Shown piece after piece: positions 5,568 to 49,542 of a DNA stretch of 64,000 nt. A program made the position numbers and the translations under genes. The notes beneath the pieces are model-generated. The model had not been told where the DNA came from and made no database searches. It saw nothing but the letters and a program-made list of their open reading frames with translations. The DNA is from Candidatus Binatia bacterium (GTDB lineage Bacteria > Desulfobacterota > Binatia > UBA9968). Within the stretch, counting starts at the first letter, position 1. The number at the start of each line of letters is the position of its first letter. The DNA is taken from NCBI GenBank assembly GCA_041483675.1, contig JBGPGE010000003.1, positions 22,502 to 86,501 on the forward strand, given 5' to 3'.

Positions 5568-5650
5568 GCGGCCGCCGGCCGTCAACCATCAGCGGTCAGC
5601 CACGAGCCGAGACGCGCGATCTCGCAAGGAACGCTGGAAGCTGGACGCTT

Positions 5651-6745: not shown

Positions 6746-6754
6746 TCGGTCGTC

Positions 6755-11639: not shown

Positions 11640-11876
11640 CAGCGGTCGGTTGCGTGGGAGAGCGATCGGGTTGCGACAAAAATCAGACGCCCCTTTTGGT
11701 TGTGATCCTCCAAGGTAAGCGTCGTCGCCAACCGCAACTCCTGGGCTGCGGACGGAATCATAGGCCAGCTTGACATAAGACCGCCTTCAACGGATAATCA
11801 ACAACGCGAAAGTAAGCGAAGAAATCTACTGCAATCTTCTCCTCTAAACCTAAGTGTTCAGCGGTCGTTTCGCATA

Positions 11877-12479
11877 ATGGGCTTACAACTCGAATACATT
11901 AACTTCATCGACACGACTACCGCGCTCGGCGGATTCCAGCGGGCGACAGGGTTGAAGATGTGTGAGTTGGGTAACCAGAAGATCCGCGTAAGCGCAGCTC
12001 AAATAACGAAAGCCAAAACCGGCAAGGAGTACTTCAGCAGCCTGGGGTATGACCATACGTCGATCGATCGGAACGGATTGGATGGGGCGTTGCCGCTGGA
12101 CCTGTGCGAACCGATCGATACCCCGGAACTCATCGGACAGTTTGACGTTTTGACTAATTCGGGCACAAGCGAGCATGTCGAAGATCAATATGAGTGCTTC
12201 AAAAATATTCACTCTTTGGTGAGGCAGAACGGCATCTTTATCCACCTGAACCCCAAGACGGGCTCCTGGCGCAGGCACGGCCTTTACTATTACACGTTCG
12301 ACTTCCATCGCCGGCTAGCGAGCGGAGCCGATTATGAAATCCTCCAGGAAGCCGACATCGCCCCTAAAGAAGGAGAGTTCCACCTCGTCTGCGTGGGACT
12401 CAAAAAACGCGGGAGAAACCCGTTCATCTCTCGGATCGAATTCAAAAAAATTGCCTCAGCCACGATTTTTCGGGCGTGA
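11877..12479 (+). CDS. Class I SAM-dependent methyltransferase-like protein in a low-GC island
   Basis: DVLTNSGTSEHVED and LVRQNGIFIHL resemble Methyltransf_11/23 post-I/II motifs. The gene and its 237-bp upstream spacer are ~50% GC versus ~65% for flanking DNA. Confidence 0.5.
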   Translation: MGLQLEYINFIDTTTALGGFQRATGLKMCELGNQKIRVSAAQITKAKTGKEYFSSLGYDHTSIDRNGLDGALPLDLCEPIDTPELIGQFDVLTNSGTSEHVEDQYECFKNIHSLVRQNGIFIHLNPKTGSWRRHGLYYYTFDFHRRLASGADYEILQEADIAPKEGEFHLVCVGLKKRGRNPFISRIEFKKIASATIFRA

Positions 12480-12535
12480 GGCATGATGTCTTTTCCGAGC
12501 AGAGAGAATAGACTCACGGAAAGGACGGGCGCCGG

Positions 12536-13261
12536 ATGAAGCTGTCGAAAAGCGGGATGTGGTTCTTTTCTCCCTGCCCGGACCAAGTGGAATTGGACGG
12601 AGTCAGAGTCCCACTCAAGAATTCCCCTTTGGACCCCAAGACGCGGCGGCGGTTAATGCGCGGCTCGTACGAGCTACCCGAGTGCGACTTAGTCCGTACC
12701 TTCATCAAGCCGGGAGAGCAAGTCTTAGAATTGGGCGCATCGGTGGGCATTGTGACCTGTTTTCTCGGCCGCCAAGCCGGCTCCACCGGTCGCTTGGTGT
12801 GCGTCGAGGCGGATGCTCGTCTGAAAGCGCCGTTCGAGACGCAATTGGCCGTGAACGGCGTCCGCGCCGTCTGGGTTAACGCCCTCTGTTGCCCTCTCTG
12901 GCAGGACCAGGTGCCGGCTCATATCGCCAAAATGTCATTTCAACAATCGGAACGAACGCTCTCCGGGCGGGCTGTCGCCGGGCCCGCCGGGGGCGAGGGT
13001 GCTCCGTGGCTAACCGCTCTGGCCATCTGTCGGGAAACCAAATTGGAGCCTACCGCGCTCGTGGTCGACATCGAAGGCAGCGAAGGCGTTTGGAGCGAAT
13101 ATCCACCGAACTTGCCGGACTCGATCGGCCTCGTGATCGCCGAATTTCATCCGGGGTTGTTGGGATCGACGATCACGGGGCAAGCGGTCCAAGCGATCCT
13201 GGAACAGGGATTTGTCGTAGCGGCACTGCGCCAAAACGTCCTTGCGTTTAAACGGAGATAG
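12536..13261 (+). CDS. FkbM-family methyltransferase
   Basis: VLELGASVGIVT (SAM-binding glycine motif) and ALVVDIEGSEGVW...IAEFH are characteristic of the FkbM domain. Confidence 0.7.
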   Translation: MKLSKSGMWFFSPCPDQVELDGVRVPLKNSPLDPKTRRRLMRGSYELPECDLVRTFIKPGEQVLELGASVGIVTCFLGRQAGSTGRLVCVEADARLKAPFETQLAVNGVRAVWVNALCCPLWQDQVPAHIAKMSFQQSERTLSGRAVAGPAGGEGAPWLTALAICRETKLEPTALVVDIEGSEGVWSEYPPNLPDSIGLVIAEFHPGLLGSTITGQAVQAILEQGFVVAALRQNVLAFKRR

Positions 13262-13322
13262 CCGCCGTGCCGGGCGTTAAAGAAACAGACGCCGTCTCAC
13301 CTTCGCACGCTCCACTTGTGGT

Positions 13323-14477
13323 ATGAAGCTCGCCCTGGCCCATAAGAGACTGGATCTCGCCGGAGGCACTGAGAGGGACTTTTACCGAACCGCGCAGGCG
13401 TTGCGGGATCTCGGCCATGAGGTGCATCTGTTCTGCGCCGAGATCAGGACCGCTCCGCCCGCCGGCGTCGTGGCCCACAGAATATTCGTGCCGCCGTTGG
13501 GACGGACGGCCCGGCTGCTCGGCTTCGCTTTTCTCGGCCCAAAGATCATTCGGCGACACGGCTGCGATCTTGTGGTTGGCTTCGGGCGCATGACGTCGCA
13601 GGACGTGCTGCGCAGCGGCGGCGGCTCTCATCGGGTCTTTTTGGACAAGATGAAGGTCGGAGAGAATGTTTTGCGCCGTTTGTGGCATAACGTGAGCCTG
13701 TACCACCGGAGCGTGTTGGCCGTGGAGCGGCTCCAGTTTCAAGCGGGAAACTATAAACGGATTCTGGCCGTGTCGGCGGAAGTGAAACGCGAAATCGTTA
13801 CGACGTACGGCGTGCCCGAAGAAAAAGTCTGCGTGATCTACAACGGAGTGGACGACCGGCGATTTCACCCGCGCAACCGGGAGGCGGCGCGCGCCGCGAT
13901 CAAGCGGCAGTTGGGGATTCCGCTCGATCGGTCCCTGGCGCTGTTTGTCGGCAGCGGTTTCCAGAGAAAGGGACTGGAGAGGCTGCTGCGGGTTTGGGGA
14001 GCCGGGCGGCTCAACGACGTCTGTCTTTTGGTGGTGGGCGACGACGCGCAGATCGCCCGCTATCGCCTGCGAGCCGAGCGGGAATTCGGCGGGCGCGTCG
14101 TTTTTGCCGGACCGAGGGAAAACGTCGAGGATTACTTCGCCGCGGCCGATATTTTTCTCCTGCCGGCCTTTCAAGAGGCTTTCGGCAACGTGGTGCTGGA
14201 GGCATTGGCTTCCGGCCTTCCGGTTTTGGTTAGCCGCCAGGTCGGCGCTTCCGAAGTGCTCAGCGGCGCGATGGAAGAATGCTTTCTGGTCTCCCCCGAC
14301 GATCCGGTTGCCGTCGAATCGCAAATTCGCGCGTTGCTCGATACCGGTCGCTGGAGCGATCTGTCTCAGCGCGCTCGAACGATCGGCGAGCGATACTCGT
14401 GGAATAACCACTTTCAGGAGCTCGAGCGCCGCCTTCTGGAGGTGGCCGAACAAAAACGCCGTGCCAGCAAATCCTGA
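13323..14477 (+). CDS. Glycosyltransferase family 4 (GT-B, WaaG-like)
   Basis: C-terminal EAFGNVVLEALASGLPVLVS is the GT4 EX7E-type motif region. The N-terminus is Rossmann-like. Confidence 0.85.
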   Translation: MKLALAHKRLDLAGGTERDFYRTAQALRDLGHEVHLFCAEIRTAPPAGVVAHRIFVPPLGRTARLLGFAFLGPKIIRRHGCDLVVGFGRMTSQDVLRSGGGSHRVFLDKMKVGENVLRRLWHNVSLYHRSVLAVERLQFQAGNYKRILAVSAEVKREIVTTYGVPEEKVCVIYNGVDDRRFHPRNREAARAAIKRQLGIPLDRSLALFVGSGFQRKGLERLLRVWGAGRLNDVCLLVVGDDAQIARYRLRAEREFGGRVVFAGPRENVEDYFAAADIFLLPAFQEAFGNVVLEALASGLPVLVSRQVGASEVLSGAMEECFLVSPDDPVAVESQIRALLDTGRWSDLSQRARTIGERYSWNNHFQELERRLLEVAEQKRRASKS

Positions 14478-15327
14478 CCATCTCTGTCTGCGATTGGGCG
14501 ACTGCTCGCTGTGGATCTCGCGGGAAGCGTACGACAGCGCGGCCGCCATCGAGCTTTTGGCCGATCCGGACCGGCTCTTCTCCGAGCCCCGCGCCGAGGT
14601 CGTCAAAGATCAAAAAAAAATCAAGGTTGCTCGAATCTCGGGGGGCATAGCGGGGAGCGCCGCAAATGTTTATCTCAAGCGCTACAACGCATTTTCCTGG
14701 CGCTACCGGCTATTTTCCATACTCGGACCCTCCGCCGCGCGGCGGGCATGGCGCGGCGCTTCGATCTTGATTGAGAACGGGTTCCAGACGGGCCGCCCGG
14801 TCGCCGCCGTCGAGTGCCGCTCGTGGGGGATGCTCACGAAAAGCTTCTACGTCTCGCAGGAAATTCCTTCGGCCAAGACGGTGGACGCCTGCTGGATCGA
14901 AGAACTTTCCCGCGGCCGTGGAGCCGAAGAACGGCGCCGCAGAAGAGAGTTGCTTCAAGCCTCGGCCGCGCTCTTTCGCCGTCTTCACCAGGCGCGCATC
15001 TACCATAACGATCTTAAAGACGCGAACATTCTTGTCGGTCCCGCGGATCGCTACACAGAGCAATCCTTTTTCCTCCTCGATCTCGAAGGCATCCGGCGCG
15101 TCTCTCGGCTGGGTCTCAGGCGGCGGATAAAGAACCTCGTGCAGTTGAACCGGACCCTCGGCCGCTTCGTCAGCCGGGCCGAGAAATGGCGCTGGGCCAG
15201 GGTTTATCTCGGGCCGGAGTTCCATGATCGCGCCACAAGAAGAATCTGGCTTCAGCGGATCGTCAAGGCGACCGCGCGCGCCGACGCGCACTCGATGCGC
15301 AAGCGGAACCGTGATTTGACAAAGTAG
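14461..15327 (+). CDS. Lipopolysaccharide kinase (Kdo/WaaP family), third copy
   Basis: YHNDLKDANILV catalytic loop and LLDLEG. Proposed GTG start overlaps the GT4 stop by 17 nt, so the start is uncertain. The gene contains an A9 tract at about 14612-14620. Confidence 0.65.
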   Translation: MPANPDHLCLRLGDCSLWISREAYDSAAAIELLADPDRLFSEPRAEVVKDQKKIKVARISGGIAGSAANVYLKRYNAFSWRYRLFSILGPSAARRAWRGASILIENGFQTGRPVAAVECRSWGMLTKSFYVSQEIPSAKTVDACWIEELSRGRGAEERRRRRELLQASAALFRRLHQARIYHNDLKDANILVGPADRYTEQSFFLLDLEGIRRVSRLGLRRRIKNLVQLNRTLGRFVSRAEKWRWARVYLGPEFHDRATRRIWLQRIVKATARADAHSMRKRNRDLTK

Positions 15328-15349
15328 AGCCGGTTGTGTACGGTTTTAA

Positions 15350-17092
<1,743 letters not shown>

Positions 17093-17173
17093 AACGATCG
17101 GTCGCTTACGTTTCACCGCGCCGTCTGGCGCCGCCGGCTTTTGCTTACGGACTACCGGAAATAATCGAGACCC

Positions 17174-18205
17174 ATGACGACAAGCCACGTCAGCTGCATC
17201 GTCGGAATGCACCGCAGCGGGACTTCTATGGTCTCGCGGCTGCTCAATCTTTGCGGGCTCGACCTGGGGCGGCCTTACGAACTTACGGAGGCCAACAAAA
17301 ATAATCCGGTCGGTTATTTCGAGAACAAAGCCTTCAATAAGATCAACCGGGCGCTCCTGTCGCACCTAGGAAAGAGCTGGGCCAATCCGCCGGCGATCGG
17401 CGACGGATGGGAGACCGATCCGGCGTTGGCGGCGCTTGCCGAGGAGGGCCGGCGCGTGATCGAGAGCTTTGCCGGCAGCCCGCACTGGGGCTGGAAAGAC
17501 CCCAAGACCACGGTGGTCTTGCCCTTTTGGCAGCGCTTGCTTCCCGGGATGCGCTATGTCGTTTGCCTGCGCAACCCGGTGGAGGTGGCCGAGTCGCTGG
17601 CGAAGCGCAACGGCTTTCCGATCGAGCATGGCGCCTATCTGTGGCATCACTACACGCGCGCCGCGATCCGGTACACGGAAGGGCGCCGGAGGATATTTGC
17701 TTTTTACGAGGATTTTTTTACCGACGGCGCGGCGGAACTCGAGAGATTAGCGGTATTTTGCGGTTTGGGAGCGGCGGGCGATCGGAGCCATGCGTTGGAG
17801 ACGATCCTGCCCGATCTGCGTCACCATCGGGATCAAACCGCTCGACTCTTAGACCACGCCGAAATTGCGGCCGAGCACAAACTGTTTTACCTAGGACTCC
17901 GGGCCTTGGCCGCCGTAGAGCCGACGGATGCAGACGTTGACGGGGAGAGGGAGGCCGTTGTCTCCGAGAGAGTCGCGCGGATGGAGAGTCTCTTTGCGGC
18001 TTTCGAGGACCAGCAGCCGATCGCGCGCCTCGAATCCGAACTGGCGGAAAAGGAGCAGCGGCTGCGGGAACTCCACGCCAAACTTCGACGCGTGGAAGAG
18101 GCCGTGGCGGAGAGTCGCAGAAAATGGGGTTTCAGGTTGGCGACCGGGCTCGGCAGAATTTTTCGAATGGAAAAGTCTGCCGCGGGCGCGCGGAAACGGT
18201 CATAA
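17174..18205 (+). CDS. Sulfotransferase family protein
   Basis: 5'-PSB motif GMHRSGTS near the N-terminus and 3'-PB CLRNPVEVAESL (RNP) match PAPS-dependent sulfotransferases (Stf0/NodH-like). A coiled-coil C-terminus follows. Confidence 0.75.
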   Translation: MTTSHVSCIVGMHRSGTSMVSRLLNLCGLDLGRPYELTEANKNNPVGYFENKAFNKINRALLSHLGKSWANPPAIGDGWETDPALAALAEEGRRVIESFAGSPHWGWKDPKTTVVLPFWQRLLPGMRYVVCLRNPVEVAESLAKRNGFPIEHGAYLWHHYTRAAIRYTEGRRRIFAFYEDFFTDGAAELERLAVFCGLGAAGDRSHALETILPDLRHHRDQTARLLDHAEIAAEHKLFYLGLRALAAVEPTDADVDGEREAVVSERVARMESLFAAFEDQQPIARLESELAEKEQRLRELHAKLRRVEEAVAESRRKWGFRLATGLGRIFRMEKSAAGARKRS

Positions 18206-18239
18206 CGGTTGCGCCGTCGAAAGGAGTGACCCGCTTCCG

Positions 18240-19145
18240 ATGATCAGCGAATTGAAGTGGCGCTATCTCGACAATCTCGGTCCGCTGCTGGCTCATCGGC
18301 GGGAGCGGCAGCCACTGGCCGGCGAGGCGGCGCGTGTAGTCGCCGAGTTGAATCGGAACGGCATCGCGATGACGTCGGTGGCCGCCCTGCTGCGCGATGG
18401 GTCGTTTTTTTCCTCGCTTGAGACCGCCGTCGCCGAGTTGGAGCGGCTGGCGGCGGACGAGATCGCGGCGGCGAGACAGGCCGCCAATCGCGCCGACGGC
18501 TGGAAAACCTATCTTATTGAGTTTCTCGGAAAACATCCCGTGCTCGAGCCGCAGAGCGTTTGCGCCCGTTTTGCGTTGCAGCCGGAGATCCTCAACATCG
18601 CCAATGCGTACTTCGGGATGCGCACCCGGCTCAGGACCTATAATGTCTGGCGCAACTTCGCCACGAAAATAGCGCCGCGCAACTCCCAACTCTGGCACCG
18701 CGATCCCGAGGATCGTTACGTGCTGAAACTGTTTGTGTATCTCGACGATGTGGATCGGGGCTGCGGCCCCATCGCCTACGCGGCGGGCAGCCATCCCAAG
18801 CGGGGATTGAAGCGGGCGCCGGCTTTCACGAAGACGGCTGAGGACAAGGCGAGGCGCAGCGACGACGGCCAGATGGCCGAGGTGGCGCCGCGGGACCGCT
18901 GGATCGACGGGATCGGTCCTAAAGGGACGATGGTCTTTGCGGATACGCGGGGATATCACAAGGGCGGGCAGGCGACGGAGCGCGAGCGGCTCCTGTATAT
19001 GTGCATGTTTACCTCCAGAGCCTCGAGATATCCGGAAGGCTTTACGCGTCCTGCGGGGTTTGCCGCCCCGGAGGGAATCGACCGAGAACAGATGTTCGCC
19101 CTAAGCGCCGAGGACAGGGAGCAACGTGGTTTGGAAAGGCGTTAA
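18240..19145 (+). CDS. Phytanoyl-CoA dioxygenase (PhyH)-family Fe(II)/2-oxoglutarate oxygenase
   Basis: HRDPED (H-x-D) and a later GSH...R resemble the PhyH double-stranded beta-helix facial triad. GTG start has AAAGGAG upstream. Confidence 0.7.
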   Translation: MISELKWRYLDNLGPLLAHRRERQPLAGEAARVVAELNRNGIAMTSVAALLRDGSFFSSLETAVAELERLAADEIAAARQAANRADGWKTYLIEFLGKHPVLEPQSVCARFALQPEILNIANAYFGMRTRLRTYNVWRNFATKIAPRNSQLWHRDPEDRYVLKLFVYLDDVDRGCGPIAYAAGSHPKRGLKRAPAFTKTAEDKARRSDDGQMAEVAPRDRWIDGIGPKGTMVFADTRGYHKGGQATERERLLYMCMFTSRASRYPEGFTRPAGFAAPEGIDREQMFALSAEDREQRGLERR

Positions 19146-19162
19146 CCGCCATCGGCTTCTTC

Positions 19163-20347
19163 GTGAGACCTCTAAACATTCTGATCGCCAACAGCTGGCG
19201 CTACAACATCGGCGGGGTCGAGTTGTGGGCGGACCGATTGGCCGGTGGTTTGAGAGCGCGCGGTCACAACGTCGCTTTCGTCGTGCGCCGGGACTCCAAG
19301 CTCTATCCGAAGTTCATCGCCGACGGGGCCGAGGTTCATGCGTTTCCCATGCGCGGCGACATGGATCCGCGCACGGTGATTCCGTTAGCCCGGCTCATTC
19401 GGCGAAGGCGCGTGGACGTCATTCTCACCCTGAGAGAACGGGACTTTCGGTTGGCCGGGCTGGCGGCCAAGCTCGCCTGTCGAGGCCGTGTCGTTGCCCG
19501 GATGCGGGCGGTCTCGGGTCACGACCAGAGTCAACACAGGCGCGATTTACAGTTTTATCGGCAGCGGTGGAGGTACAATTATTTCGCCGCGAAAGTAATT
19601 ACGAATTCCACAAGAGGGAAGCGGGATTTAGTCGAGGGCGGGTGGCTTACGGCGGATCGGGTGGAGGTGCTGCGCAACGGCGTCGACCTAAACGCTTTCA
19701 ATCCGAAAAAAATCCTCGGCGGGCCGCTTAGAAAAGAGTACGGCATCCCCGCCGATGCGCCGGTCGTGTCTCTTATCGCCCGGTTAAGCGAAGGAAAAGG
19801 GCAGCTTCTGTTGGCCGAAGCTGCGTGTCGACTGCGGGAGCGCCACCCAAACGCGTTTTATTTATTGGTCGGAGGGCCGACGCGGCAAAAGTTTCTTCAG
19901 ACGCTAAGCGAGTTTATCCAGGAGACCGGCCTGCGGGAACGTTTGATTCTCACCGGTTTTCGGACCGACGTAGCGCGCATTCTCGCCGACACCGACGTGT
20001 TGGTGCTTCCCTCCGTCGCCGAGGGGCTGCCCAACGTGGTTCTGGAAGCGATGGCCATGCGCCGTCCGGTAATTGCCACGAATGTTGGCGGCACGGAAGA
20101 GGTTGTTGAGGATGGGGTGAACGGTTTTTTGCTCCCCGTTCCCGTGTCGGTCCCGCTGCTCTGCGAGAAACTTGATTTTCTCCTGGCGCATCCCGCGGAG
20201 CGGGAGCGAATGGGGAGAATGGGACGGGCCACGGTAGAGCGCGAGTTCGATCTTCGACGGAGCGTGGAGCGCTACGAAGAACTTTTCTATCGTGTCTTAG
20301 GCGAGCCTTGCGCGGGAGCGCGCCCGCCGGGCCTTTCCGATCGTTAA
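19163..20347 (+). CDS. Glycosyltransferase family 4
   Basis: GFRTDVARILADTDVLVLPSVAEGLPNVVLEAMAMRRPVIATNVGGTEEVV is the canonical GT4 C-terminal motif. Start is set at GTG and is uncertain. Confidence 0.8.
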   Translation: MRPLNILIANSWRYNIGGVELWADRLAGGLRARGHNVAFVVRRDSKLYPKFIADGAEVHAFPMRGDMDPRTVIPLARLIRRRRVDVILTLRERDFRLAGLAAKLACRGRVVARMRAVSGHDQSQHRRDLQFYRQRWRYNYFAAKVITNSTRGKRDLVEGGWLTADRVEVLRNGVDLNAFNPKKILGGPLRKEYGIPADAPVVSLIARLSEGKGQLLLAEAACRLRERHPNAFYLLVGGPTRQKFLQTLSEFIQETGLRERLILTGFRTDVARILADTDVLVLPSVAEGLPNVVLEAMAMRRPVIATNVGGTEEVVEDGVNGFLLPVPVSVPLLCEKLDFLLAHPAERERMGRMGRATVEREFDLRRSVERYEELFYRVLGEPCAGARPPGLSDR

Positions 20348-20364: not shown

Positions 20365-21102
20365 ATGGAGATTCTCGCCGTCATTCCCGCGCGAGGCGGT
20401 TCGAAGTCGGTGCCGCGGAAAAATATCCGGCCGCTTGCGGGCAGACCGCTGATCGCCTGGATCATCGGCGAAGCGAAAACATCCAAGCACATCACCCGCG
20501 CGATCGTGTCGACGGACGACCCGGAGATCGCCGCCGTGGCCAAAGCGCACGGCGCGGAAGTCCCGTTCATGCGGCCGGCGGAGCTGGCAGGGGATCTCTC
20601 GACCGACGTGGAGTTCCTGCTGCACGCGCTGGACCGGCTGAAGCGCGAAGAAAATTACGAGCCGGAGATCGTTCTCCGCCTCCCGCCGACCGCGCCTCTT
20701 TGCACGGCGGCGCGGATCGACGAGGGAATTCAGAAGCTTCTCGACACGCCGGAGGCCGACGCGGTTCGGCCGGTCGTCGAAGCCTCCAAGCATCCCTACA
20801 AAATGTGGAAGATCTCGGCCGATGGACGCTGGCTCGAGCCTTTCCTGGCGTCGGCGATCACCGGGTTCGCCGCGCCGCACGATCTGCCGCGGCAGCTCTT
20901 CCCGAAAGTCTACACGCAGACGGGGGCGATGGACGTGATCCGGCTCCGCACGCTGCGCGACTTGAAATCGACTTCGGGGAAAAAGCTCGCCTATTTTTTT
21001 ATGGAGCCTGAGGAAGCGATCAACATCGACCATGAGATGGATTTCGCGATGGCCGAATTCTTCATGCAGCGCCGTCTGCGGTCGCAGGCCGGCGGGAAAT
21101 AG
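20365..21102 (+). CDS. neuA: Acylneuraminate (nonulosonic acid) cytidylyltransferase, CMP-sugar synthetase
   Basis: ILAVIPARGGSKSVPRKNIRPLAGRPLIAW is the CMP-NeuAc synthetase/CTP-transferase-3 signature. GGAGGAG RBS. Confidence 0.8.
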   Translation: MEILAVIPARGGSKSVPRKNIRPLAGRPLIAWIIGEAKTSKHITRAIVSTDDPEIAAVAKAHGAEVPFMRPAELAGDLSTDVEFLLHALDRLKREENYEPEIVLRLPPTAPLCTAARIDEGIQKLLDTPEADAVRPVVEASKHPYKMWKISADGRWLEPFLASAITGFAAPHDLPRQLFPKVYTQTGAMDVIRLRTLRDLKSTSGKKLAYFFMEPEEAINIDHEMDFAMAEFFMQRRLRSQAGGK

Positions 21103-21193
21103 CCGTCCGGCATGGGCGCAAACCTTGCTACGGGGGCCGTTTAGGGTTAAAATCAACCAATTTTCGTCCGACAAAAGCAGCGGAGGTGCCAAG

Positions 21194-22753
21194 TTGCCGG
21201 AGGGCAAGGAATTCGATTTTAACGGCCTTTTTATCTTCGAGGTCGCGAACAATCACCAGGGAAGCGTGGCGCACGGTCACCGGATCGTCCGGGAGATCGG
21301 GCGCGTGGCGAAGGCCGCGGGGGTGCGCGGGGCCGTCAAGCTCCAACTACGCGATCTCGACACCTTTATCCATCCGGGCTACCGGGAGAGCCGCGAGAAC
21401 AAGCATATCCAGCGGTTCTTGTCGACGCGGCTTACGGAAGCTCAGTTCGGCGATCTGGTCGGCGAGATCAGGAACGAAGGGTTGATCCCGCTCTGCACGC
21501 CGTTCGATGAGCCGTCCGTGGATGTCATGATGCGGATGGGGCTCGATTTGATCAAGGTCGGCAGCTGCTCCGCGCAGGATTGGCCGCTGCTCGAGCGCGT
21601 GGCCGACGCGGGCAAACCGGTGATCTGCTCCACCGGCGGGCTGAGTGTCAAAGAGATCGACAACATCGTGAGCTTCTTCCAGCATCGCGGTATTCACTTC
21701 GCGTTGATGCATTGCGTGGCGATCTATCCTTCGCCCAACAGCAAGCTCTGCCTGTCGCAGATTCAAGTGCTGAAAAACCGCTATCCAGGCGTTCCGATCG
21801 GCTTTTCGACGCACGAAGAGCCGTCGAATCTGACCGCGGTCGGCGTCGCCTATGCGATGGGCGCGCGGCTCTTTGAGAAACACGTGGGCGTTCCCGACGC
21901 CGATGTCCAGCTAAACGCCTATTCCGCGACGCCGGAGCAGGTCGCGGCCTGGCTGGCCGCTTACGGCGAGGCCGTAGCGGCCTGCGGCGGGAACGGCGAG
22001 CGGCCGATCGAGGAGGCGGAGATCAAGGATCTGCGCTCTCTTACCCGCGGCGCCTACGCGAAGCGGCCGCTGAAAGCGGGCGTGGCGATGAAGCGCGGCG
22101 ACGTGTTTTTCGCGATGCCGCTGTTGGAAGGCCAGCTCACGAGCGGCCATTGGAATGAGGGACTGGTTGCCGATCGCGACTACGCGACGGGAGAGGCGCT
22201 CGCCGCCGCTTTGCGCTCCGGCCGCCCGGCCCGAAAAGAGCTGATCTATTCCAGCATCCACCAGCTCCGGGGGATGCTGAACGCGGCCCGTATTCCGCTC
22301 GGACACGATTTTTCGGTCGAGCTCTCTCATCACTACGGCCTGGAGCGGTTTCACGAGATCGGCTGCACGCTGATCGAGTGCATCAATCGCGACTACGCCA
22401 AGAAGCTGGTCGTCCAGACGCCGGGGCAGTGGAATCCGGTGCATTACCACAAAAAAAAGGACGAAACGTTTCAGGTGCTTCAGGGGGTGTTGGAGGTCGA
22501 GCTGGAGGGCAGAAAAAAAGTCCTCGAGCCGGGCGACGCGCTGTGGATTCCGCCCGGAGTCTGGCATGGGTTCGGCACCAAAACCGGCGTGATCTTCGAG
22601 GAGATTTCCACCCGCAGCTACAACGACGATTCGTTTTACGTCGATCGGGAGATCGCCGCGATGCCCCGGGAAGAGCGCAAGACATGGCTGCACAATTGGG
22701 GGCGGCACCAGTTTGATCCCCTGAGCGAGGAAGAAACGGAAGAGCGGAAGTAG
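21194..22753 (+). CDS. neuB: N-acetylneuraminate (nonulosonate) synthase fused to a C-terminal cupin domain
   Basis: FIFEVANNHQGS, LKVGSCS and ICSTGG are NeuB TIM-barrel motifs, followed by a SAF-like segment. The extra ~120 aa (VHYHKKKDETFQVLQGVLEVELEGRKKVLEPGDALWIPPGVWHGFG) is a cupin_2 barrel. TTG start has GGAGG 7 nt upstream. Confidence 0.8.
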   Translation: MPEGKEFDFNGLFIFEVANNHQGSVAHGHRIVREIGRVAKAAGVRGAVKLQLRDLDTFIHPGYRESRENKHIQRFLSTRLTEAQFGDLVGEIRNEGLIPLCTPFDEPSVDVMMRMGLDLIKVGSCSAQDWPLLERVADAGKPVICSTGGLSVKEIDNIVSFFQHRGIHFALMHCVAIYPSPNSKLCLSQIQVLKNRYPGVPIGFSTHEEPSNLTAVGVAYAMGARLFEKHVGVPDADVQLNAYSATPEQVAAWLAAYGEAVAACGGNGERPIEEAEIKDLRSLTRGAYAKRPLKAGVAMKRGDVFFAMPLLEGQLTSGHWNEGLVADRDYATGEALAAALRSGRPARKELIYSSIHQLRGMLNAARIPLGHDFSVELSHHYGLERFHEIGCTLIECINRDYAKKLVVQTPGQWNPVHYHKKKDETFQVLQGVLEVELEGRKKVLEPGDALWIPPGVWHGFGTKTGVIFEEISTRSYNDDSFYVDREIAAMPREERKTWLHNWGRHQFDPLSEEETEERK

Positions 22754-22776
22754 CTCCTCTCCGAAAATCCGCCTCC

Positions 22777-23427
22777 ATGATCAAAGCGGTTGTCCTCGAT
22801 TTCGACGGAGTGATCGTCGACTCCAACAAGCTCAAGCGTGAGAGCTTCTTCGCCCTATTTCCCCGGGACGAGGAAACCGCCGCCGTCGTCGGCGCGATCG
22901 TGTCGCAGAAGTGGCGGCGGTCGCGCTTTGAAATCCTGCGCGCGGCGATCGAGCGATTGAACCTGGCGGGCGAGGTAGAGATCGAGAGCCTGGTTCAGGC
23001 CTACGCTCGCCGTTACAACGAGAAGGTCCAGCGCGGCATCGCCGAGATGGGGCTGATCCCGGGCGTCGGCGAACGGCTGGCGGCGCTGTCGCAAAGGTAT
23101 CTCCTCTATGTCAATTCCGGGACCTACGAGCCGGCGCTGCGCGAGAGCGTCGAGCGGTTGAATATCTTGCAGCGGTTCCTGGCCGCGTACGGCGGTCCCG
23201 CGGGAAAAGTTGAAAATCTGCAAAAGATATTGGCTCATCGGTCGATCCGGGCGGAGGAGTCGGTCTTCGTCGGCGACGGGGCGGAGGACCGCGACGCGGC
23301 CCGCGAATGCGGCTGTCGGTTCGTCGGCGTAGCGAATGAATTCAACGGCTGGGGCGAGGAGGAGTTCCCGGTAGTCGGCGGCCTCGGCGCGGCTATCCCT
23401 ATCATCGACGGCTTTAATTCAATGTGA
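22777..23427 (+). CDS. HAD-superfamily hydrolase (subfamily IA phosphatase-like)
   Basis: Motif I VVLDFDGVIVDS. Motif IV VGDGAEDRDAA. Confidence 0.75.
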   Translation: MIKAVVLDFDGVIVDSNKLKRESFFALFPRDEETAAVVGAIVSQKWRRSRFEILRAAIERLNLAGEVEIESLVQAYARRYNEKVQRGIAEMGLIPGVGERLAALSQRYLLYVNSGTYEPALRESVERLNILQRFLAAYGGPAGKVENLQKILAHRSIRAEESVFVGDGAEDRDAARECGCRFVGVANEFNGWGEEEFPVVGGLGAAIPIIDGFNSM

Positions 23428-23430
23428 ACC

Positions 23431-23446
23431 CCGCCTCTTGAGGCGG
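23431..23446 (+). terminator. GC-rich hairpin (CCGCCT-CTTG-AGGCGG) immediately after the HAD gene stop
   Basis: Perfect 6-bp inverted repeat 4 nt after the TGA. No U-tract follows, so intrinsic-terminator function is uncertain. Confidence 0.3.
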
Positions 23447-23554
23447 GCACAAAGCCGATGGGGTTTCCAATGGGGAGAAGTGGCAGCTCTCCCCTTTGGT
23501 CGAACGCGGGGATTCAAGCCCCGTGTTCGATATAACTTGATTTGCAGAATCCTG

Positions 23555-24646
23555 GTGAAAACGATCAAAGTCAAAATAATCGGCGCAGGCTCGATCGGTA
23601 ATCATCTCGCCCACGCTTGCCGGCGGATGGATTGGGAGGTCGTGGTGGTGGACCGCGACCGCGCCGCGCTCGACCGGATGCGAAACGATCTCTACCCGGG
23701 CCGCTATGGCGGCTGGGACGAGCGCATCGAGCTTTGCGCCTCGGCGGACGAGCCGCGCGGCGGGTTCGATATCATTTGTATCGGCACTCCGCCCGACGCG
23801 CGCATGGGCTTGGCGGTCAAGGCGTTGGAAGAAATGCCGCGGATCTTACAGCTGGAAAAACCGCTCTGCTGCCCGACGTTGGAGGGGCTGGATCTCTTTT
23901 TGTCGCGCTACCGCGCGCAGCGGGAGACGATTGGGGTGGTCGGTTACGATCACGCGGTCTCGCAGGCGGTCTCCGCCGTGCTTGAGCGGCTGGATTCCGG
24001 TTGGGCCGGCGAAATGGCGACGGTTGATGTTGAATTCCGCGAGCATTGGAACGGCATTTTCAAAGCGCATCCGTGGCTTGCCGGTCCGCAGGATTCCTAT
24101 CTCGGATTTTGGTCGCGCGGCGGCGGCGCCGGCGGCGAGCACTCTCATGCGCTCCATCTCTGGCAGCTTCTCGCCCGGCGCGGCGGGCTGGGGAGTTGGC
24201 GCCAGGTCAGCGCCGTCATGGCGATGGAGCAGGCGGGAGGCGCGGATTACGATTCGTTATGCGCATTTTCATTTGTGACCGACCGGGGAAGGGTGGGACG
24301 GGTGGTCCAGGACGTCGTGACCTCGCCGCCGCGCAAATGGGCGCGGCTTCAGGGGTCGGAGGGCTTTATCGAGTGGATTTGCAACGGCGACGCCAAAGGG
24401 GATATGGTTCGCTATGGACGCGCAGGCAAGGATCCGGTCGAAGAGGTCTACCCGAAGACGCGGCCCGATGATTTTTATCGCGAGATGCAGCACCTGCGGG
24501 AGCTGCTCGAAAACCGGATTTCGCCGGAGCAGTCGCCGATCTCGCTGGAGAGCGGGGTGGCGGTGATGCGGGTCCTGGCGACGGCGCACCGGCATCGCAA
24601 CGGGACGGCGGAAATCCCATCGGCTCCGAACACTTTTCCCCGATAG
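23555..24646 (+). CDS. Gfo/Idh/MocA-family NAD(P)-dependent oxidoreductase
   Basis: IKVKIIGAGSIGNHLA Rossmann motif and EKP consensus (LQLEKPL). GTG start. The upstream in-frame region lacks an ATG. Confidence 0.7.
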   Translation: MKTIKVKIIGAGSIGNHLAHACRRMDWEVVVVDRDRAALDRMRNDLYPGRYGGWDERIELCASADEPRGGFDIICIGTPPDARMGLAVKALEEMPRILQLEKPLCCPTLEGLDLFLSRYRAQRETIGVVGYDHAVSQAVSAVLERLDSGWAGEMATVDVEFREHWNGIFKAHPWLAGPQDSYLGFWSRGGGAGGEHSHALHLWQLLARRGGLGSWRQVSAVMAMEQAGGADYDSLCAFSFVTDRGRVGRVVQDVVTSPPRKWARLQGSEGFIEWICNGDAKGDMVRYGRAGKDPVEEVYPKTRPDDFYREMQHLRELLENRISPEQSPISLESGVAVMRVLATAHRHRNGTAEIPSAPNTFPR

Positions 24647-24700
24647 ACGTTTCGATTCGTAGTTCGATTCGTGGTTTAAGGATAACGAAGGGCTCAAGAG

Positions 24701-26158
24701 ATGACGTTGTTTATCTACCTTCGGTTGGGCAATTCCCACCGTAACATCCTGCGTTCGGAGCTTTTTCCAACGCTCAGGTCCAATCGCAACTTGCGACTGG
24801 TCATTATCTCTCCGCTGGGCGATGAAGGCTATCTCAAGAGCGAGTTTCAAAGCGAGAACGTGTTCGTCGAGCGGCTGCCGAAAACCCGTCCCGACGGGCT
24901 GGAGCGCCAGCTCAAGAAGCTGAAAAACTATATCTGGTTGTCGCACAACCCGCCGGAGACGTTTCGCATCCGCCGGGAAAGGACGCGGCGGGAGGGGCTC
25001 TCCGGACGTCTACGGGTCGTTTGGGAAGAGAGCGTCGCGGCATTCATGAACGGCTTGGGGATTACCGAGAAAACCGTCGACGGATGGGAACTCGCGCTGT
25101 TTCGCCGCCGCAAGATCGCGCGCCTGTTCGACCGTTATCGGCCCGATGCGGTGTTGTTTACCAAGCTCCATTCCACCAATATCCACGTGGTGAAGGAGGC
25201 CAAGAAACGCGACATCGAAGCCGTCTGTTTCGTGGAGGGGTGGGACAATCCGACGAGCAAGGGGCCGTTTTCGGTCGAGCCGGACCATGTCCTCGTCTGG
25301 AACGAGTGCATGAAGCGGGAAATCGTCGAGCACCACCGCTTTCCGGCGGAGAAAATCGACGTCGTGGGGGTGCCGCAGTTCGATTTTTATTATGACCGCT
25401 CGAAGTTTTGCGGCCGGGAAGAGTTTTTTCGTAAACACGGATTCGATCCGACCCGGAAGCTGATCGCCTACTGCGTCGCGGGCGGCACGATCGCGCGGAG
25501 CGAGCCGCTGATCATCGACATGCTCTATCGGGCGATGATGGAGGGGCGGGTGAAATCGCCGGCGCAGCTTCTGGTCAGGCTCCATCCCACGACCCACGGA
25601 GACTATCTGAAAGAATTCGACCGGTTCAAGGGGCTGCCGCACTTGATCCTGCAGCCCGCGGGGCGGGTGGCGAAGATTCAGGACGGCTGGGATCCCTCCC
25701 AGCAGGACATGATGCGCTTGGCGGAAACCATGATCCATTCGAACGTCGTGATCAACGTCGCTTCGACGATTTCGCTCGACGCGATCGCTTTCGACACCCC
25801 GGTGGTCGGTATCGCGTTCGAAGGGGACGGGCCGCACGATTATCTGGATTCTTACCGCCGTTACTACGACTATACGCACTTCAACCCGGTGTTGCGCAAC
25901 GGCGGGCTTCGGCTCGCCGGCAGCCTGGCGGAATTGATCGACCACGTGAATCGGTATCTCGACGATCCGTCGCTGGATGCGGAGGGGAGGGCGCGGGTGA
26001 GGAAAGAACAGATGTACGCGCTGGACGGGAAGTCGGCAAGGCGAGCGGGCGAAGCGATTCTCAAGGCGCTCGGGCTCAGACCGGGCGTCGCCGAGGCTCA
26101 GCTTCGGGGGGATTTGGCGATTGCGCCAGCGAAACTTGAGTCCCCTTCGGAGGCGTAA
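24701..26158 (+). CDS. GT-B fold TagF/KpsC-like glycosyl- or glycerophospho-transferase (putative capsule/nonulosonate transferase)
   Basis: LVRLHPTTHGDY (HP motif) and VINVASTISLDAIAFDTPVVGIAFEG resemble the CDP-glycerol glycerophosphotransferase and KpsC/KpsS capsule families. The assignment is by motif only. Confidence 0.5.
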   Translation: MTLFIYLRLGNSHRNILRSELFPTLRSNRNLRLVIISPLGDEGYLKSEFQSENVFVERLPKTRPDGLERQLKKLKNYIWLSHNPPETFRIRRERTRREGLSGRLRVVWEESVAAFMNGLGITEKTVDGWELALFRRRKIARLFDRYRPDAVLFTKLHSTNIHVVKEAKKRDIEAVCFVEGWDNPTSKGPFSVEPDHVLVWNECMKREIVEHHRFPAEKIDVVGVPQFDFYYDRSKFCGREEFFRKHGFDPTRKLIAYCVAGGTIARSEPLIIDMLYRAMMEGRVKSPAQLLVRLHPTTHGDYLKEFDRFKGLPHLILQPAGRVAKIQDGWDPSQQDMMRLAETMIHSNVVINVASTISLDAIAFDTPVVGIAFEGDGPHDYLDSYRRYYDYTHFNPVLRNGGLRLAGSLAELIDHVNRYLDDPSLDAEGRARVRKEQMYALDGKSARRAGEAILKALGLRPGVAEAQLRGDLAIAPAKLESPSEA

Positions 26159-26165
26159 TATTTCT

Positions 26166-27083
26166 GTGAATGCGAGAGAATATTGTGTATCCGTGGCTAT
26201 CGCCACCAAAGGGCGCATCGAGGGGCTGGACCGGCTCTTGCGCACGCTTTCGGAGGACGAGGCCCGCGAGGAGATTCCTCATGAGATTTTAGTCGGCAAC
26301 AACGCGCCCGACGAGGCGGCCGCTCGCGCGGTCGAGGAGACGGTGCGAAAGTATTCGGGGCGGCCGAATTCCGCCCTGCGCTCGTCCCGCGAGCCGGTGC
26401 CGGGCAAATGCCTCACTTTGAATCGTCTCCTGCCGATCGCCAAAGGGGAGATCCTTGCCTACCTGGACGACGACGTTGAAGTCGCGCCGGGCTGGCTCAG
26501 GGCGACGCGCGATTTTTTCGTTCAGCATCCCTACGAGGTGATGCAGGGCCGTATTCTTTTTCCGCCGGCGATCAAGGACGATCCCGAGTTCCTGAAAGCC
26601 TGGAACCGCTATCGCACGATCATGTACGTGAATTTCGGGGACGAGGTGAAGCAAATCCGCGACCTCACGGGCGCCAATATGGCGGTCAGGCGGGAGGTTT
26701 TCGACAAGGTCGGCCTGTTCGACGAGCGCATCGGTCCGGGACAGTCCGGTACCTCGATGGATGTAGAATTCGGCCAGCGGGTCATGCGCATGGGACTCCG
26801 CATCGGCTACGCGCCGGCCTCGATCGTCTACCACGACATCGACTGGTCGCGGTTTACCGAGGAATATTTCCGTTCGCGTCACGAACAGCAGGGCCGGAGC
26901 CGTCTGATCTACAAGAACAGCTCGATGGCGGCGATTGTCGCAGATCTCACTCGTTCGCTGCTTTCGCTCGGGTGGTATTCCCTGTTTTACAACGAGCGTA
27001 AGCGATACCGATCTCTGGGAAGAACCTATCATTATCGAGCCATGCTGAAGGAAAAGATGGGACGCCTATGCGAGTCTGCCTGA
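26166..27083 (+). CDS. Glycosyltransferase family 2
   Basis: VSVAIATKGRIEGLDRLLRTL and a LDDDVEV DXD-type motif. GTG start. Confidence 0.75.
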   Translation: MNAREYCVSVAIATKGRIEGLDRLLRTLSEDEAREEIPHEILVGNNAPDEAAARAVEETVRKYSGRPNSALRSSREPVPGKCLTLNRLLPIAKGEILAYLDDDVEVAPGWLRATRDFFVQHPYEVMQGRILFPPAIKDDPEFLKAWNRYRTIMYVNFGDEVKQIRDLTGANMAVRREVFDKVGLFDERIGPGQSGTSMDVEFGQRVMRMGLRIGYAPASIVYHDIDWSRFTEEYFRSRHEQQGRSRLIYKNSSMAAIVADLTRSLLSLGWYSLFYNERKRYRSLGRTYHYRAMLKEKMGRLCESA

Positions 27084-28540
27084 TTTTCCCGAAATCCACA
27101 TTTTTAGAAGACCCGATGGTGTTTCCACCTCTGGGTCTCTGGTGGCTCTGGTCGGTGCTGGAAAAGGCCGGCCATGAAGTCGCGTTCATCGACATGTCGG
27201 AGCACAACCTCGATACGAGCGAGGTTCCGCGCGGCTTTGACGCCTATCTGGTTTCGGGGACCTCGCCCCAAGGCCGGGAGATAAGAAAGCTCGGAGTAGA
27301 GTGTCGCAACCGTGGAGTGCCGGCGATCCTGGGCGGCCCCCATGCGACCAACTATCCTCGCGACTGTCGAAAGTATTTTCCGCTGGTTGTCCGTAGGGAA
27401 GGCGAGAGCGCCGTGCTGAAGGCCCTGGAGCGCGTGCAGCGCGGCGCGGCGCTCGAGTATCTCTCGGACGAGGATCTGGTGAGAGTGCGAATGGGCGAAA
27501 AGCCCGCTTTGGAAAAATGCCAGCGCGGCGTGATCGAGGACGCCTTCATCGGCGACCTGGGCACGGTCCCGATACCGAATCGCACTTACGCCGGACACTA
27601 TCATTATTATCTTGCGGACGAGAACGGCGTCAAGCGGCGGGGAACCAGCATGTTTACCTCGCGCGGCTGTCCGAAGCGCTGCGATTTTTGCGACTCGCCC
27701 AACCTGTGGTCGCGCGTCGTTCGCAATACGCCGGTTACCAGGGTCGCCGAGGAATTCGCTCAGATCAAAGCATTGGGGCTGGACGCCATTCAGTTCTACG
27801 ACGACATCCTGCCGATCAATCCGCGCCGGGTCGCCGAGATCTGCGGCCATCTCAAGCGCTACGGGTTTATCTGGAGATGTTTCTGCCGCGTCGATATCAT
27901 CACGAAGCACGGCGGCAAGGACTACCTTAAGTTCATGTACGACCATGGGCTGCGGGAGGTCCTGATCGGCGCCGAGTCCGGCTCGCAGACGATCCTCAAC
28001 AACATTCACAAAGAGACGACGGTCGAGCAGAACGCCAATGTCCTCCAGTGGTGCGACGAGGTCGGGATACGGTGCAAGCTGTCTTTCATCGTCGGACTCC
28101 CGGGCGAAACGCGAGAGACCCTGGAGGAGACGCGAAAGTTTCTCCGTACGCACCTGATCCAGGCGTCGCGCAGGATGCCGCACAAAGTCGATCTCTGCTC
28201 GTATATCCCGATGGCGGGAACACCGATCTACAAAGCCGTGATGCGCCGGCAGGACGACAGCCTGGATGGGGGAGAGGAGTTCGACAGCTACGGCTATCAT
28301 CCGGGGGAAAACGTCTCCGATTTCGATCTGCGGTGGAATGTCGATGCCGCGCTGATGGATAATTTTTTCTACGAACCGGACAGCCTCGACGGCCATTTGG
28401 CCCCCGACGAGATTTTCTACAAAGGAAGGGCCGGCGCCGTGCGCCAGATCGTCTCCACTTCGAGTATAACCCGGGAAGAGCTGCAAAAGGCCCGCGATGA
28501 GATGGAAGCCGAGGTGCGGGCTGCGGGAATCTCATACTGA
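27068..28540 (+). CDS. B12-binding domain-containing radical SAM protein (class B radical SAM)
   Basis: N-terminal cobalamin-binding Rossmann-like region (LIFPKS...GHEVAFIDMS...LVSGTS) and a CxxxCxxC cluster SRGCPKRCDFCDS. A downstream GAESGSQTIL-type motif is also present. Confidence 0.8.
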   Translation: MRVCLIFPKSTFLEDPMVFPPLGLWWLWSVLEKAGHEVAFIDMSEHNLDTSEVPRGFDAYLVSGTSPQGREIRKLGVECRNRGVPAILGGPHATNYPRDCRKYFPLVVRREGESAVLKALERVQRGAALEYLSDEDLVRVRMGEKPALEKCQRGVIEDAFIGDLGTVPIPNRTYAGHYHYYLADENGVKRRGTSMFTSRGCPKRCDFCDSPNLWSRVVRNTPVTRVAEEFAQIKALGLDAIQFYDDILPINPRRVAEICGHLKRYGFIWRCFCRVDIITKHGGKDYLKFMYDHGLREVLIGAESGSQTILNNIHKETTVEQNANVLQWCDEVGIRCKLSFIVGLPGETRETLEETRKFLRTHLIQASRRMPHKVDLCSYIPMAGTPIYKAVMRRQDDSLDGGEEFDSYGYHPGENVSDFDLRWNVDAALMDNFFYEPDSLDGHLAPDEIFYKGRAGAVRQIVSTSSITREELQKARDEMEAEVRAAGISY

Positions 28541-37919: not shown

Positions 37920-38076
37920 ACTAGATGGGTAGCATGCCCCACGGTCGGATTCAACGAGATCGCCCCGCAGTCCATGGGGTCTACTTGAACATCCCAATTT
38001 TTCGCTTTCCGCCACGGCGAAAGTGCGCTAATATCTCCGGCAGCAACAAGGCCGTTATGGAAAGGGGGATAAACGC

Positions 38077-49520: not shown

Positions 49521-49542
49521 GTTCCGCCTCATAACTAAAAAC

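Follow-up and report, generated by a model that had tools for sequence, protein, structure and literature searches.

Nonulosonic acids shape the recognition of bacterial surfaces. To our knowledge, the known routes to them, which lead to neuraminic (Neu), pseudaminic (Pse), and legionaminic (Leg) acids and to 2-keto-3-deoxynononic acid (Kdn), all take a pre-made manno-configured aldose. What sugar, then, is made by a locus in which a NeuB-family synthase runs on into a second, cupin-type domain? This question is raised by a 64,000-nucleotide stretch of a Candidatus Binatia genome (contig JBGPGE010000003.1, positions 22,502–86,501; hereafter the window). The five-gene set at 20365–26158 of the window is genuine and widespread, and its probable role is to synthesize an acidic sugar resembling sialic acid (Kdn-type), to activate it, and to attach it. 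More specifically, we favor on balance the reading that these genes are one module, which would build, activate with cytidine monophosphate (CMP), tailor, and transfer a non-amino (Kdn-type, 5-hydroxy) 3-deoxy-2-ulosonic acid. The genes, with the fusion divided into its two parts, are as follows.

20365–21102, + strand: NeuA-like cytidylyltransferase, 245 aa, predicted CMP-ulosonic acid synthetase (Pfam CTP_transf_3)
21194–22225, + strand: NeuB-type TIM barrel and SAF domain, aa 1 to ~344 of the 519-aa fusion (Pfam NeuB; 3G8R fold)
22226–22753, + strand: D-lyxose/D-mannose-isomerase-like Mn-cupin domain, aa ~345–510, and a short tail (Cupin_2; Foldseek; profile)
22777–23427, + strand: HAD-IA (HAD_2) phosphatase, 216 aa (Pfam HAD_2; motifs)
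~23555–24646, + strand: Gfo/Idh/MocA sugar dehydrogenase, predicted to be NAD-dependent, ~363 aa, start approximate (AlphaFold2 fold; motifs)
24701–26158, + strand: TagB/TagF-like GT-B protein, 485 aa, candidate CMP-sugar transferase (NCBIfam, sub-threshold)

The intergenic gaps along this run are 23–127 nt. Open reading frames (ORFs) together with Pfam, NCBIfam, and fold evidence reproduced the gene content and coordinates of the initial annotation (NeuA-like, NeuB-cupin, HAD, and Gfo/Idh/MocA). The absence of NeuC, Pse, and Leg genes that it had reported also holds, as Pfam scans of ~50 ORFs of the window found no DegT, Polysacc_synt_2, or NeuC-type gene. Its view of the genes as a non-canonical module of the nonulosonic acid type is likewise supported. 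All parts of the module are of known kinds; the combination is uncharacterized, and a synthase with its own substrate-forming isomerase is undescribed.

Occurrence of the fused synthase

The ORF of the fusion (21194–22753) has a TTG start with GGAGG ~8 nt upstream and zero internal stops. Its product is 100% identical to a database protein of the same length (P0001, 519 aa), and a close relative is labeled "hypothetical" in a metagenome-assembled genome (MAG) of a groundwater deltaproteobacterium. The NeuB-plus-cupin architecture was found in >5000 database protein clusters (57–76% identity), the family size amounts to hundreds of clusters at 50% identity, and at least 545 species encode the fusion, as seen when GTDB was scanned with each species represented by one genome. 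The single ORF, the identical database protein, and the conserved architecture exclude a frameshift or an otherwise artefactual fusion, a concern that had been raised with the initial annotation. Most carriers belong to the candidate phyla radiation (CPR)/Patescibacteria and to Desulfobacterota, including the cultured Desulfofustis glycolicus DSM 9705; others were found in Gammaproteobacteria, Verrucomicrobiota, Aminicenantes, Marinimicrobia, Actinomycetota, and Bacillota.

The fusion had been called unusual. It is indeed absent from characterized NeuB, PseI, and LegI enzymes, but its family is large and conserved, and a fragment of one relative was available from the PDB as early as 2009. This entry, 3G8R, is a 350-residue chain from a structural genomics effort on Chromobacterium violaceum, named "probable spore coat polysaccharide biosynthesis protein E." Its parent protein (P0254) has 495 aa with NeuB, SAF, and Cupin_2 domains, and the crystallized chain ends before the cupin. 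The deposited structure therefore hides the fusion. The labels used in public databases are "N-acetylneuraminate synthase family protein," "cupin domain-containing protein," and "hypothetical." In the literature, we found no paper linking NeuB to a cupin or a lyxose isomerase, and none on nonulosonic acids in Patescibacteria.

The NeuB barrel and the C-terminal domain

The 519-aa protein matches Pfam NeuB (PF03102) at E = 1e-40. Residues 1 to ~340 match 3G8R best (sequence E = 7e-91; template modeling score normalized to the target, TMt, 0.92), followed by NeuB of Neisseria meningitidis (NmNeuB) and PseI. A SAF domain lies ahead of the cupin, as seen from fold matches to 3G8R and NmNeuB across 331–350 columns. 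With the NeuB-family synthases NmNeuB (1XUU; Foldseek E = 3.5e-25) and Campylobacter jejuni PseI (8H2C), the window protein shares the TIM barrel and SAF domain (E of 1e-25, TMt 0.80–0.83), whereas sequence identity is ~23%. For the comparison of substrate residues suggested with the initial annotation, we used a profile alignment to NmNeuB. The residues H215/H236, K53, K129, S132, S154, and S213 of NmNeuB correspond to H207/H230, K49, K121, S124, S146, and S205, so that the two metal-binding His and the PEP (phosphoenolpyruvate)-binding Lys and Ser residues are common to both. Further residues for PEP or sugar (Gln51, Glu16, and Tyr178) are also kept.

In contrast to these catalytic residues, four NmNeuB residues are replaced. 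Arg314 is Met308 in the window protein and hydrophobic across the family ("FFAMP" versus "WVKRP"), while Glu134 is changed to Ser, Asn184 to Ala, and Asp247 to Asn. In NmNeuB, Arg314 lies in the SAF domain, binds the N-acetyl group of N-acetylmannosamine (ManNAc), and is essential (compare the R314A/K structures 4IPI/4IPJ). Its loss, together with the three other changes, fits a non-acetamido aldose. The cut-offs of the equivalog models for NeuB_NnaB (TIGR03569; 123.3 versus 399.65 bits) and PseI (TIGR03586; 109.4 versus 340.25 bits) were not reached. As judged from its residues, the NeuB domain fits an active PEP-condensing enzyme for a 2-hydroxy rather than a 2-acetamido aldose.

What sets the window protein further apart from NeuB-family synthases is the extra 175-aa isomerase-like domain. 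The initial annotation had described a cupin of ~120 aa beyond the SAF domain. A cupin does follow the SAF domain (Pfam Cupin_2, PF07883, E = 4e-14), but the addition is a whole domain of ~175 aa (aa ~345–510) that superposes on complete D-lyxose isomerases; its identity is thus narrower, namely D-lyxose/D-mannose-isomerase-like, and an aldose-making role had not been proposed for it. An AlphaFold model of the 519-aa protein was built from 111 homologues (mean predicted local distance difference test score, pLDDT, 92.8; predicted template modeling score, pTM, 0.83). In a Foldseek search of the PDB, the C-terminal ~175–185 aa matched whole D-lyxose isomerases (7nzp, 2y0o, and 3kmh; E = 4e-12 to 6e-11). 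The TMt was 0.71–0.73 over 164–185 aligned columns for TsLI of Thermofilum (7nzp/7nzo/7nzq) and YdaE of Bacillus subtilis (2y0o), and 0.55–0.57 for Escherichia coli Z5688 (3kmh/3mpb). A profile of the domain aligned to TsLI and YdaE across the entire domain, including the helices ahead of the barrel. Identity to the D-lyxose isomerases is 17–25% in the fold alignments, and 22–25% when the domain is set against TsLI, YdaE, and Z5688. The Pfam family Lyx_isomer (PF07385) was matched with 29.8 bits over the whole protein (cut-off 20.8), involving profile positions 57–110 of 222 only and with no single stretch passing.

The active site is retained in most positions. In TsLI, mannose or fructose and Mn are contacted by K62, H75, H77, K86, E88, H143, E156, and D163, and the E. 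coli enzyme becomes inactive when its residues equivalent to K86, E156, and D163 are mutated (PMC8378251). Seven of these eight contacts, corresponding to K404, H417, H419, K422, E424, H458, and E470 in the window protein, are invariant in the family; they comprise the four metal ligands (three His and one Glu) and three further substrate-contact residues. The eighth, D163, aligns to N477, and an invariant Asp (D479) is found two residues on. The whole-domain fold, the Mn ligands, the catalytic Lys and Glu, and the motifs YxxK, PxHxH, KxETF, and EE/SE-x-S are therefore common to the window domain and the D-lyxose/D-mannose isomerases (TsLI 7NZO-Q, YdaE 2Y0O, and Z5688 3KMH). The window domain differs from them in being fused behind a synthase and in its own invariant motifs (SHHYG and RKT...NWG); relative to TsLI, the equivalent of D163 is shifted and the pentose-gating Arg175 is absent, with Ala489 in its place.

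A search with this domain alone against 1.84 billion representative proteins returned 325 clusters at E ≤ 1e-10. Most were fusions of ~500 aa, but stand-alone proteins of 160–185 aa with the same motifs also exist and look complete, which argues that the domain is an autonomous unit. From its residues and model, it is probably a catalytic aldose-ketose isomerase. D-lyxose isomerases yield exactly the C2/C3 configuration that is used by NeuB-family enzymes, and this supports the isomerase domain feeding the barrel. We consider it likely that the domain supplies the synthase's own substrate.

Gene neighborhood, proposed pathway, and competing explanations

To assess linkage, we sampled 80 related loci with 10-kb flanks and counted partners within 6 kb. 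Neighbor families were defined by clustering all ORFs, because gene calling by longest ORF fails in high-GC DNA. The cytidylyltransferase had relatives in 65 of the 80 loci, the dehydrogenase in 64, and the HAD phosphatase in 55, almost all on the same strand. The gene order is NeuA-synthase-HAD-dehydrogenase in CPR and dehydrogenase-synthase-HAD-NeuA in Desulfobacterota. In 26 loci a TagB/BFO_1060-like protein is encoded close to the synthase, and a further 19 have a member of a TagF-like family there. Natural fusions join the same partners: cytidylyltransferase-NeuB-isomerase (P0096 and P0020), NeuB-isomerase-HAD_2 (P0378, 723 aa), and cytidylyltransferase-dehydrogenase (P0190). The HAD part of P0378 is weakly similar to the window HAD, for which we do not claim orthology. 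As conserved neighbors that are each fused to pathway partners elsewhere, the HAD and Gfo/Idh/MocA proteins belong functionally to the module, in line with the initial annotation. No conserved kinase, aminotransferase, acetyltransferase, or NDP-sugar enzyme was found across the 80 loci, which points to a central ketose phosphate as the start.

Some related loci carry additional genes within the cassette. An extra HldC/TagD-like nucleotidyltransferase (PF01467) occurs in some CPR relatives, where it is encoded by a small gene that separates NeuA from the synthase or forms part of the synthase polypeptide (P0020 and P0027; L004 9428–9952, L005, and L008). Other inserts resemble a NodU/CmcH-type carbamoyltransferase (L033 11543–13261) and aminoglycoside-phosphotransferase-type kinases (L011 8704–9798 and L064 11601–12716). 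Judged from their sequences alone, these lineage-specific inserts hint that the sugar may also occur in carbamoylated or phosphorylated form.

The partner proteins are of the expected kinds. The cytidylyltransferase (CTP_transf_3, E = 4e-22) is nearer to NeuA/PseF than to KdsB: it scored 137.7 bits with PseF, the closest NCBIfam model (TIGR03584, cut-off 205.7, not reached), and ~50 bits with the KdsB models, all below cut-offs, and it matched NeuA/CMP-NeuAc synthetases in the PDB at E = 2.5e-30 to 1e-19 versus ~1e-7 for KdsB. The HAD protein (HAD_2, E = 8e-15) is of the capped HAD_2 type, with the DxD of motif I in DFDGV (residues 8–12) and motif IV, GDGxxD, as GDGAEDRD near residue 166.

For the dehydrogenase, Pfam Rossmann/GFO matches were marginal (N-domain 24.5 versus 24), and a PDB sequence search found nothing closer than inositol 2-dehydrogenase (E = 0.03), with no close solved relative. 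Its AlphaFold2 model (pLDDT 95.7) has the Gfo/Idh/MocA fold, a Rossmann domain plus an alpha/beta C-domain. In Foldseek, it matched sugar dehydrogenases at E of about 5e-21 to 1e-20 and TM 0.72–0.81, its neighbors being levoglucosan dehydrogenase, scyllo-inositol dehydrogenase, 1,5-anhydrofructose reductase, WlbA, GenD2, and YjhC/RgNanOx. Enzymes of the YjhC/NanOx type act at C4 of sialic acid. The motifs GAGSIG, LEKPL (with the Lys of EKP), and GGGAGGEHSH (GGGxxxEHSH) are present, and Asp33 after beta-2 suggests NAD as the cofactor.

A direct precedent for this dehydrogenase is the 8-epi-legionaminic acid pathway of Acinetobacter baumannii KL49, in which ElaA (Gfo/Idh/MocA) was proposed from crystal structures and docking to oxidize C8 of CMP-legionaminic acid, ElaB is the neighboring cytidylyltransferase that makes the CMP-sugar, and ElaC, a short-chain dehydrogenase/reductase (SDR), was proposed to re-reduce the product (PMC13656337). 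The common feature is a Gfo/Idh/MocA dehydrogenase encoded with a cytidylyltransferase, in our case in 64 of the 80 loci and as one polypeptide in P0190. The difference is the SDR partner: Pfam scans found no SDR gene in the window island, and one is adjacent in only a subset of related loci. By analogy, we infer that the dehydrogenase tailors the sugar as ElaA would do for legionaminic acid.

The TagB-like GT-B protein has a counterpart in Tannerella forsythia, where BFO_1060 orthologues are genetically shown Pse/Leg transferases (Tanf_01245 and BFO_1060; PMC5420450). In both cases a TagB-like GT-B protein lies beside nonulosonic acid genes, whereas the match of the window protein to the BFO_1060 family is partial (NF046086; E = 2.5e-16; residues 137–257 only) and does not reach the cut-off (59.8 versus 200 bits). 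It also matches TIGR04396. From these matches, the protein is a candidate transferase for the CMP-sugar.

Based on the domain identities, conserved catalytic residues, linkage, and natural fusions, we infer a route in six steps, including its substrates, its product, and the points at which the HAD and dehydrogenase proteins act. First, the Mn-dependent isomerase domain would convert a ketose or ketose phosphate to a manno/lyxo-configured aldose, in the simplest case fructose to mannose or fructose-6-P to mannose-6-P. Second, the SAF-capped NeuB barrel would condense this aldose with PEP to a 5-hydroxy (Kdn-type) ulosonic acid. Third, the HAD protein would take off the phosphate, either from the ulosonate phosphate (Kdn-9-P-like) or from the ketose phosphate before isomerization. 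Fourth, the NeuA-like enzyme would form the CMP-sugar. Fifth, the dehydrogenase would oxidize one hydroxyl of the free or CMP-bound sugar, or epimerize it via a keto intermediate. Sixth, the TagB-like protein would transfer the sugar, which probably ends on the lipopolysaccharide (LPS) or surface glycan of the surrounding island.

A more far-reaching proposal, which we regard as possible and put forward tentatively, is that the product is a CMP-activated ulosonic acid not yet described, either a keto or epimeric derivative of Kdn or an 8- or 10-carbon analogue. In this proposal, the fusion would channel a scarce manno/lyxo aldose from a central ketose, and CPR/Patescibacteria and sulfate-reducing Desulfobacterota would have in this sugar a major surface component that has been overlooked. 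The family itself would add a fifth logic of nonulosonic acid synthesis: with an isomerase of its own, the synthase could begin from a central ketose. This would explain how a sugar of this type is affordable for organisms with tiny genomes, among them CPR bacteria. Once the product is defined, better annotation would also be possible for thousands of "N-acetylneuraminate synthase family" genes, which almost certainly do not make N-acetylneuraminic acid (Neu5Ac). Cultured carriers exist in D. glycolicus and, for a sister subfamily described below, C. violaceum.

That the fusion product differs from Neu5Ac is argued by five loci (L004, L018, L020, L023, and L027), in which the fusion cassette and a separate canonical set of NeuB (327–370 aa), NeuC, and NeuA are found in one glycan locus. 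Four of these are from CPR MAGs and L023 is labeled Gammaproteobacteria. Cells with both sets probably make two different nonulosonic acids.

Several observations weigh against the preferred reading of a single Kdn-type module. About a dozen complete loci lack the HAD gene, and a few (L025, L069, and L014) lack the dehydrogenase gene, so neither is strictly essential. The candidate transferase rests below its family cut-off, as noted. All characterized D-lyxose isomerases that we know of use free sugars, so a phosphosugar route needs a changed specificity, and the retained acidic pocket residues E470 and D479 argue mildly against a phosphate close by. As far as the results go, the product may have 8, 9, or 10 carbons. 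A further point comes from the betaproteobacterial sister subfamily (C. violaceum and Azoarcus sp. KH32C), which includes the parent of 3G8R and hence the same fused NeuB and SAF parts in another gene context. Its members keep nearly all invariant residues, with Gln in place of the first cupin His. NeuA, HAD, and dehydrogenase genes were not found near them. Instead, their loci encode a Glc-1-P nucleotidyltransferase, a 4,6-dehydratase, DegT, a thiamine pyrophosphate enzyme, a methyltransferase (C-methyltransferase-like), NUDIX, radical SAM, and epimerase proteins, a CDP-6-deoxyhexose context. The sister clusters are located as follows.

L081 (C. violaceum), 6846–18234: sister cluster
L082 (Azoarcus sp. 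KH32C), 2806–19966: sister cluster, beside flagellin

Because the residues are nearly the same and the context is different, the substrate of the fused enzyme may not be a simple hexose, and the enzyme may handle a less ordinary sugar than mannose. The sister cluster itself looks like an uncharacterized pathway for a branched or extended sugar, for which a role in flagellin glycosylation is possible.

Among the alternatives, the one that survives best is a plain phosphorylated Kdn pathway, although we rate it as rather unlikely. Here the cupin would convert fructose-6-P to mannose-6-P, NeuB would make Kdn-9-P, HAD would release Kdn, and NeuA would form CMP-Kdn, with the dehydrogenase being accessory or unrelated. 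A Kdn-9-P synthase, a phosphatase, and a CMP-Kdn synthetase are the logic followed in Bacteroides thetaiotaomicron and vertebrates; the three enzymes of the former were reportedly described by Wang et al. in 2008. When the two systems are compared by description, in both, the gene for a NeuB-family synthase is grouped with those for a HAD phosphatase and a cytidylyltransferase (adjacent in the window and linked in 55–65 of the 80 loci) and amino-sugar genes are absent, whereas the built-in isomerase, the conserved Gfo/Idh/MocA dehydrogenase, and the capped HAD_2 set the window apart. The Kdn-9-P phosphatase of B. thetaiotaomicron is of the cap-less KdsC-like type. The initial annotation had noted a resemblance to Kdn-9-P-type routes. 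The grouping of synthase, HAD, and cytidylyltransferase makes this plausible, as do the frequent HAD neighbor and its fusion in P0378, a cupin-type phosphomannose isomerase (7zvm) among the matches, and the fact that no kinase is needed. However, a capped HAD_2 could equally act on the ketose phosphate before isomerization. The best matches of the cupin are free-sugar D-lyxose isomerases, and this precedent and the acidic pocket weaken the Kdn-9-P reading. The basic residues near the sugar site (K70, R74, and R79) are not phosphate-specific, since they are common to the subfamily found among 6-deoxyhexose genes and are uninformative as a phosphate-binding signature. The dehydrogenase, to which the initial annotation gave no role, is as conserved as the cytidylyltransferase and fused to it in places; plain Kdn synthesis needs no such enzyme and thus does not explain the module.

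It is improbable, in our view, that the product is an undescribed CMP-ulosonic acid outside the C9 series, made either from xylulose(-5-P) via lyxose(-5-P) as a C8 acid or from sedoheptulose-7-P via D-glycero-D-manno-heptose-7-P as a C10 acid. We know of no C8 or C10 sugars of this kind in nature. The cytidylyltransferase is much nearer to NeuA/PseF than to KdsB, and the replacement of the pentose-gating Arg by Ala489 likewise counts against this explanation. This explanation draws on the preference of several family members for D-lyxose (TsLI is lyxose-specific; PMC8378251), on the HldC/TagD-like domain of P0020 and P0027, and on the surrounding LPS island, which is heptose-containing and encodes GT9 heptosyltransferases as well as HldA/HldC-like proteins.

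Still less probable is that the cupin does not feed the synthase at all, but serves as a dioxygenase, as a domain that binds sugar for regulation, or as a KdgF-like enzyme that works elsewhere, in which case the aldose would have a different source. Cupins are functionally diverse, the first metal His is Gln in the betaproteobacterial subfamily, and the top sequence-only PDB matches are quercetinase and KdgF. These matches, however, are limited to the generic barrel motif, whereas the whole-domain fold and profile, with the N-terminal helices, YxxK, KxETF, the SEFS-like EEIS, and the invariant catalytic Lys/Glu pair, favor a D-lyxose isomerase, and a generic quercetinase- or KdgF-like cupin was rejected on these grounds.

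The idea that the extension merely decorates a canonical synthase for Neu5Ac, Pse, or Leg, fed with ManNAc by the N-acylglucosamine 2-epimerase (AGE/RENBP) family protein encoded in the window (3880–5199, – strand; Pfam E = 4e-42), deserves almost no credence despite the NeuB family membership of the protein, as the scores far below the NeuB and PseI cut-offs and the lost Arg314 led us to reject a Neu5Ac/Pse synthase, the epimerase gene is 15 kb off on the opposite strand and is no conserved neighbor of the fusion, and several loci have canonical NeuB/NeuC/NeuA sets alongside the fusion.

The surrounding glycan island

The module is embedded in a glycan island from ~680 to 33300 that encodes GT2, GT4, and GT9 (heptosyl) transferases, a PMT_2 protein, a Kdo/WaaP-family kinase, an HldA-like kinase, a bifunctional 3'-phosphoadenosine 5'-phosphosulfate (PAPS) synthase, a sulfotransferase, a PhyH-like dioxygenase, and a B12-radical-SAM enzyme. 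Its main features, and the HldC-like gene beyond its end, are as follows.

5312–6745 and 8208–9332, + strand: two GT9 heptosyltransferases
14476–15327, + strand: Kdo/WaaP-family kinase
15374–19145, + strand: sulfate adenylyltransferase/APS kinase (PAPS synthase), sulfotransferase, and PhyH-like dioxygenase, directly upstream of the module
27068–28540, + strand: B12-binding radical SAM enzyme among glycosyltransferases, just downstream of the module and conserved only in the close relative L001
32287–33327, + strand: PfkB kinase (HldA-like), one half of a split RfaE-like pair
37446–38015, – strand: CTP_transf_like nucleotidyltransferase (HldC-like), other half of the split RfaE-like pair

The RfaE-like pair, the GT9 transferases, and the Kdo/WaaP-family kinase together identify a locus for the LPS inner core that includes genes for ADP-heptose. 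The PAPS synthase, sulfotransferase, and PhyH-like genes upstream of the module suggest that the glycan is sulfated and hydroxylated, and the sugar is probably part of an LPS core or outer glycan that is also sulfated. PhyH-like genes are found near the cassette also in L011 and L030. The B12 radical SAM enzyme may be a sugar C-methylase or may carry out another radical modification. The AGE-family gene adjoins the two GT9 heptosyltransferase genes; its family includes GlcNAc/ManNAc epimerases as well as aldose-ketose isomerases.

Outside the island, the window contains these further features.

47934–50700, – strand: MoxR-VWA pair of the MoxR-vWA-beta-propeller ternary system type
38507–39943 and 61387–62973, + strand: two UbiD-family decarboxylases
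54171–55148 (+ strand), 60159–61163 (– strand), and 62937–63974 (– strand): three luciferase-like monooxygenases, around an enolase-superfamily/octopine-dehydrogenase/ABC-transporter cluster

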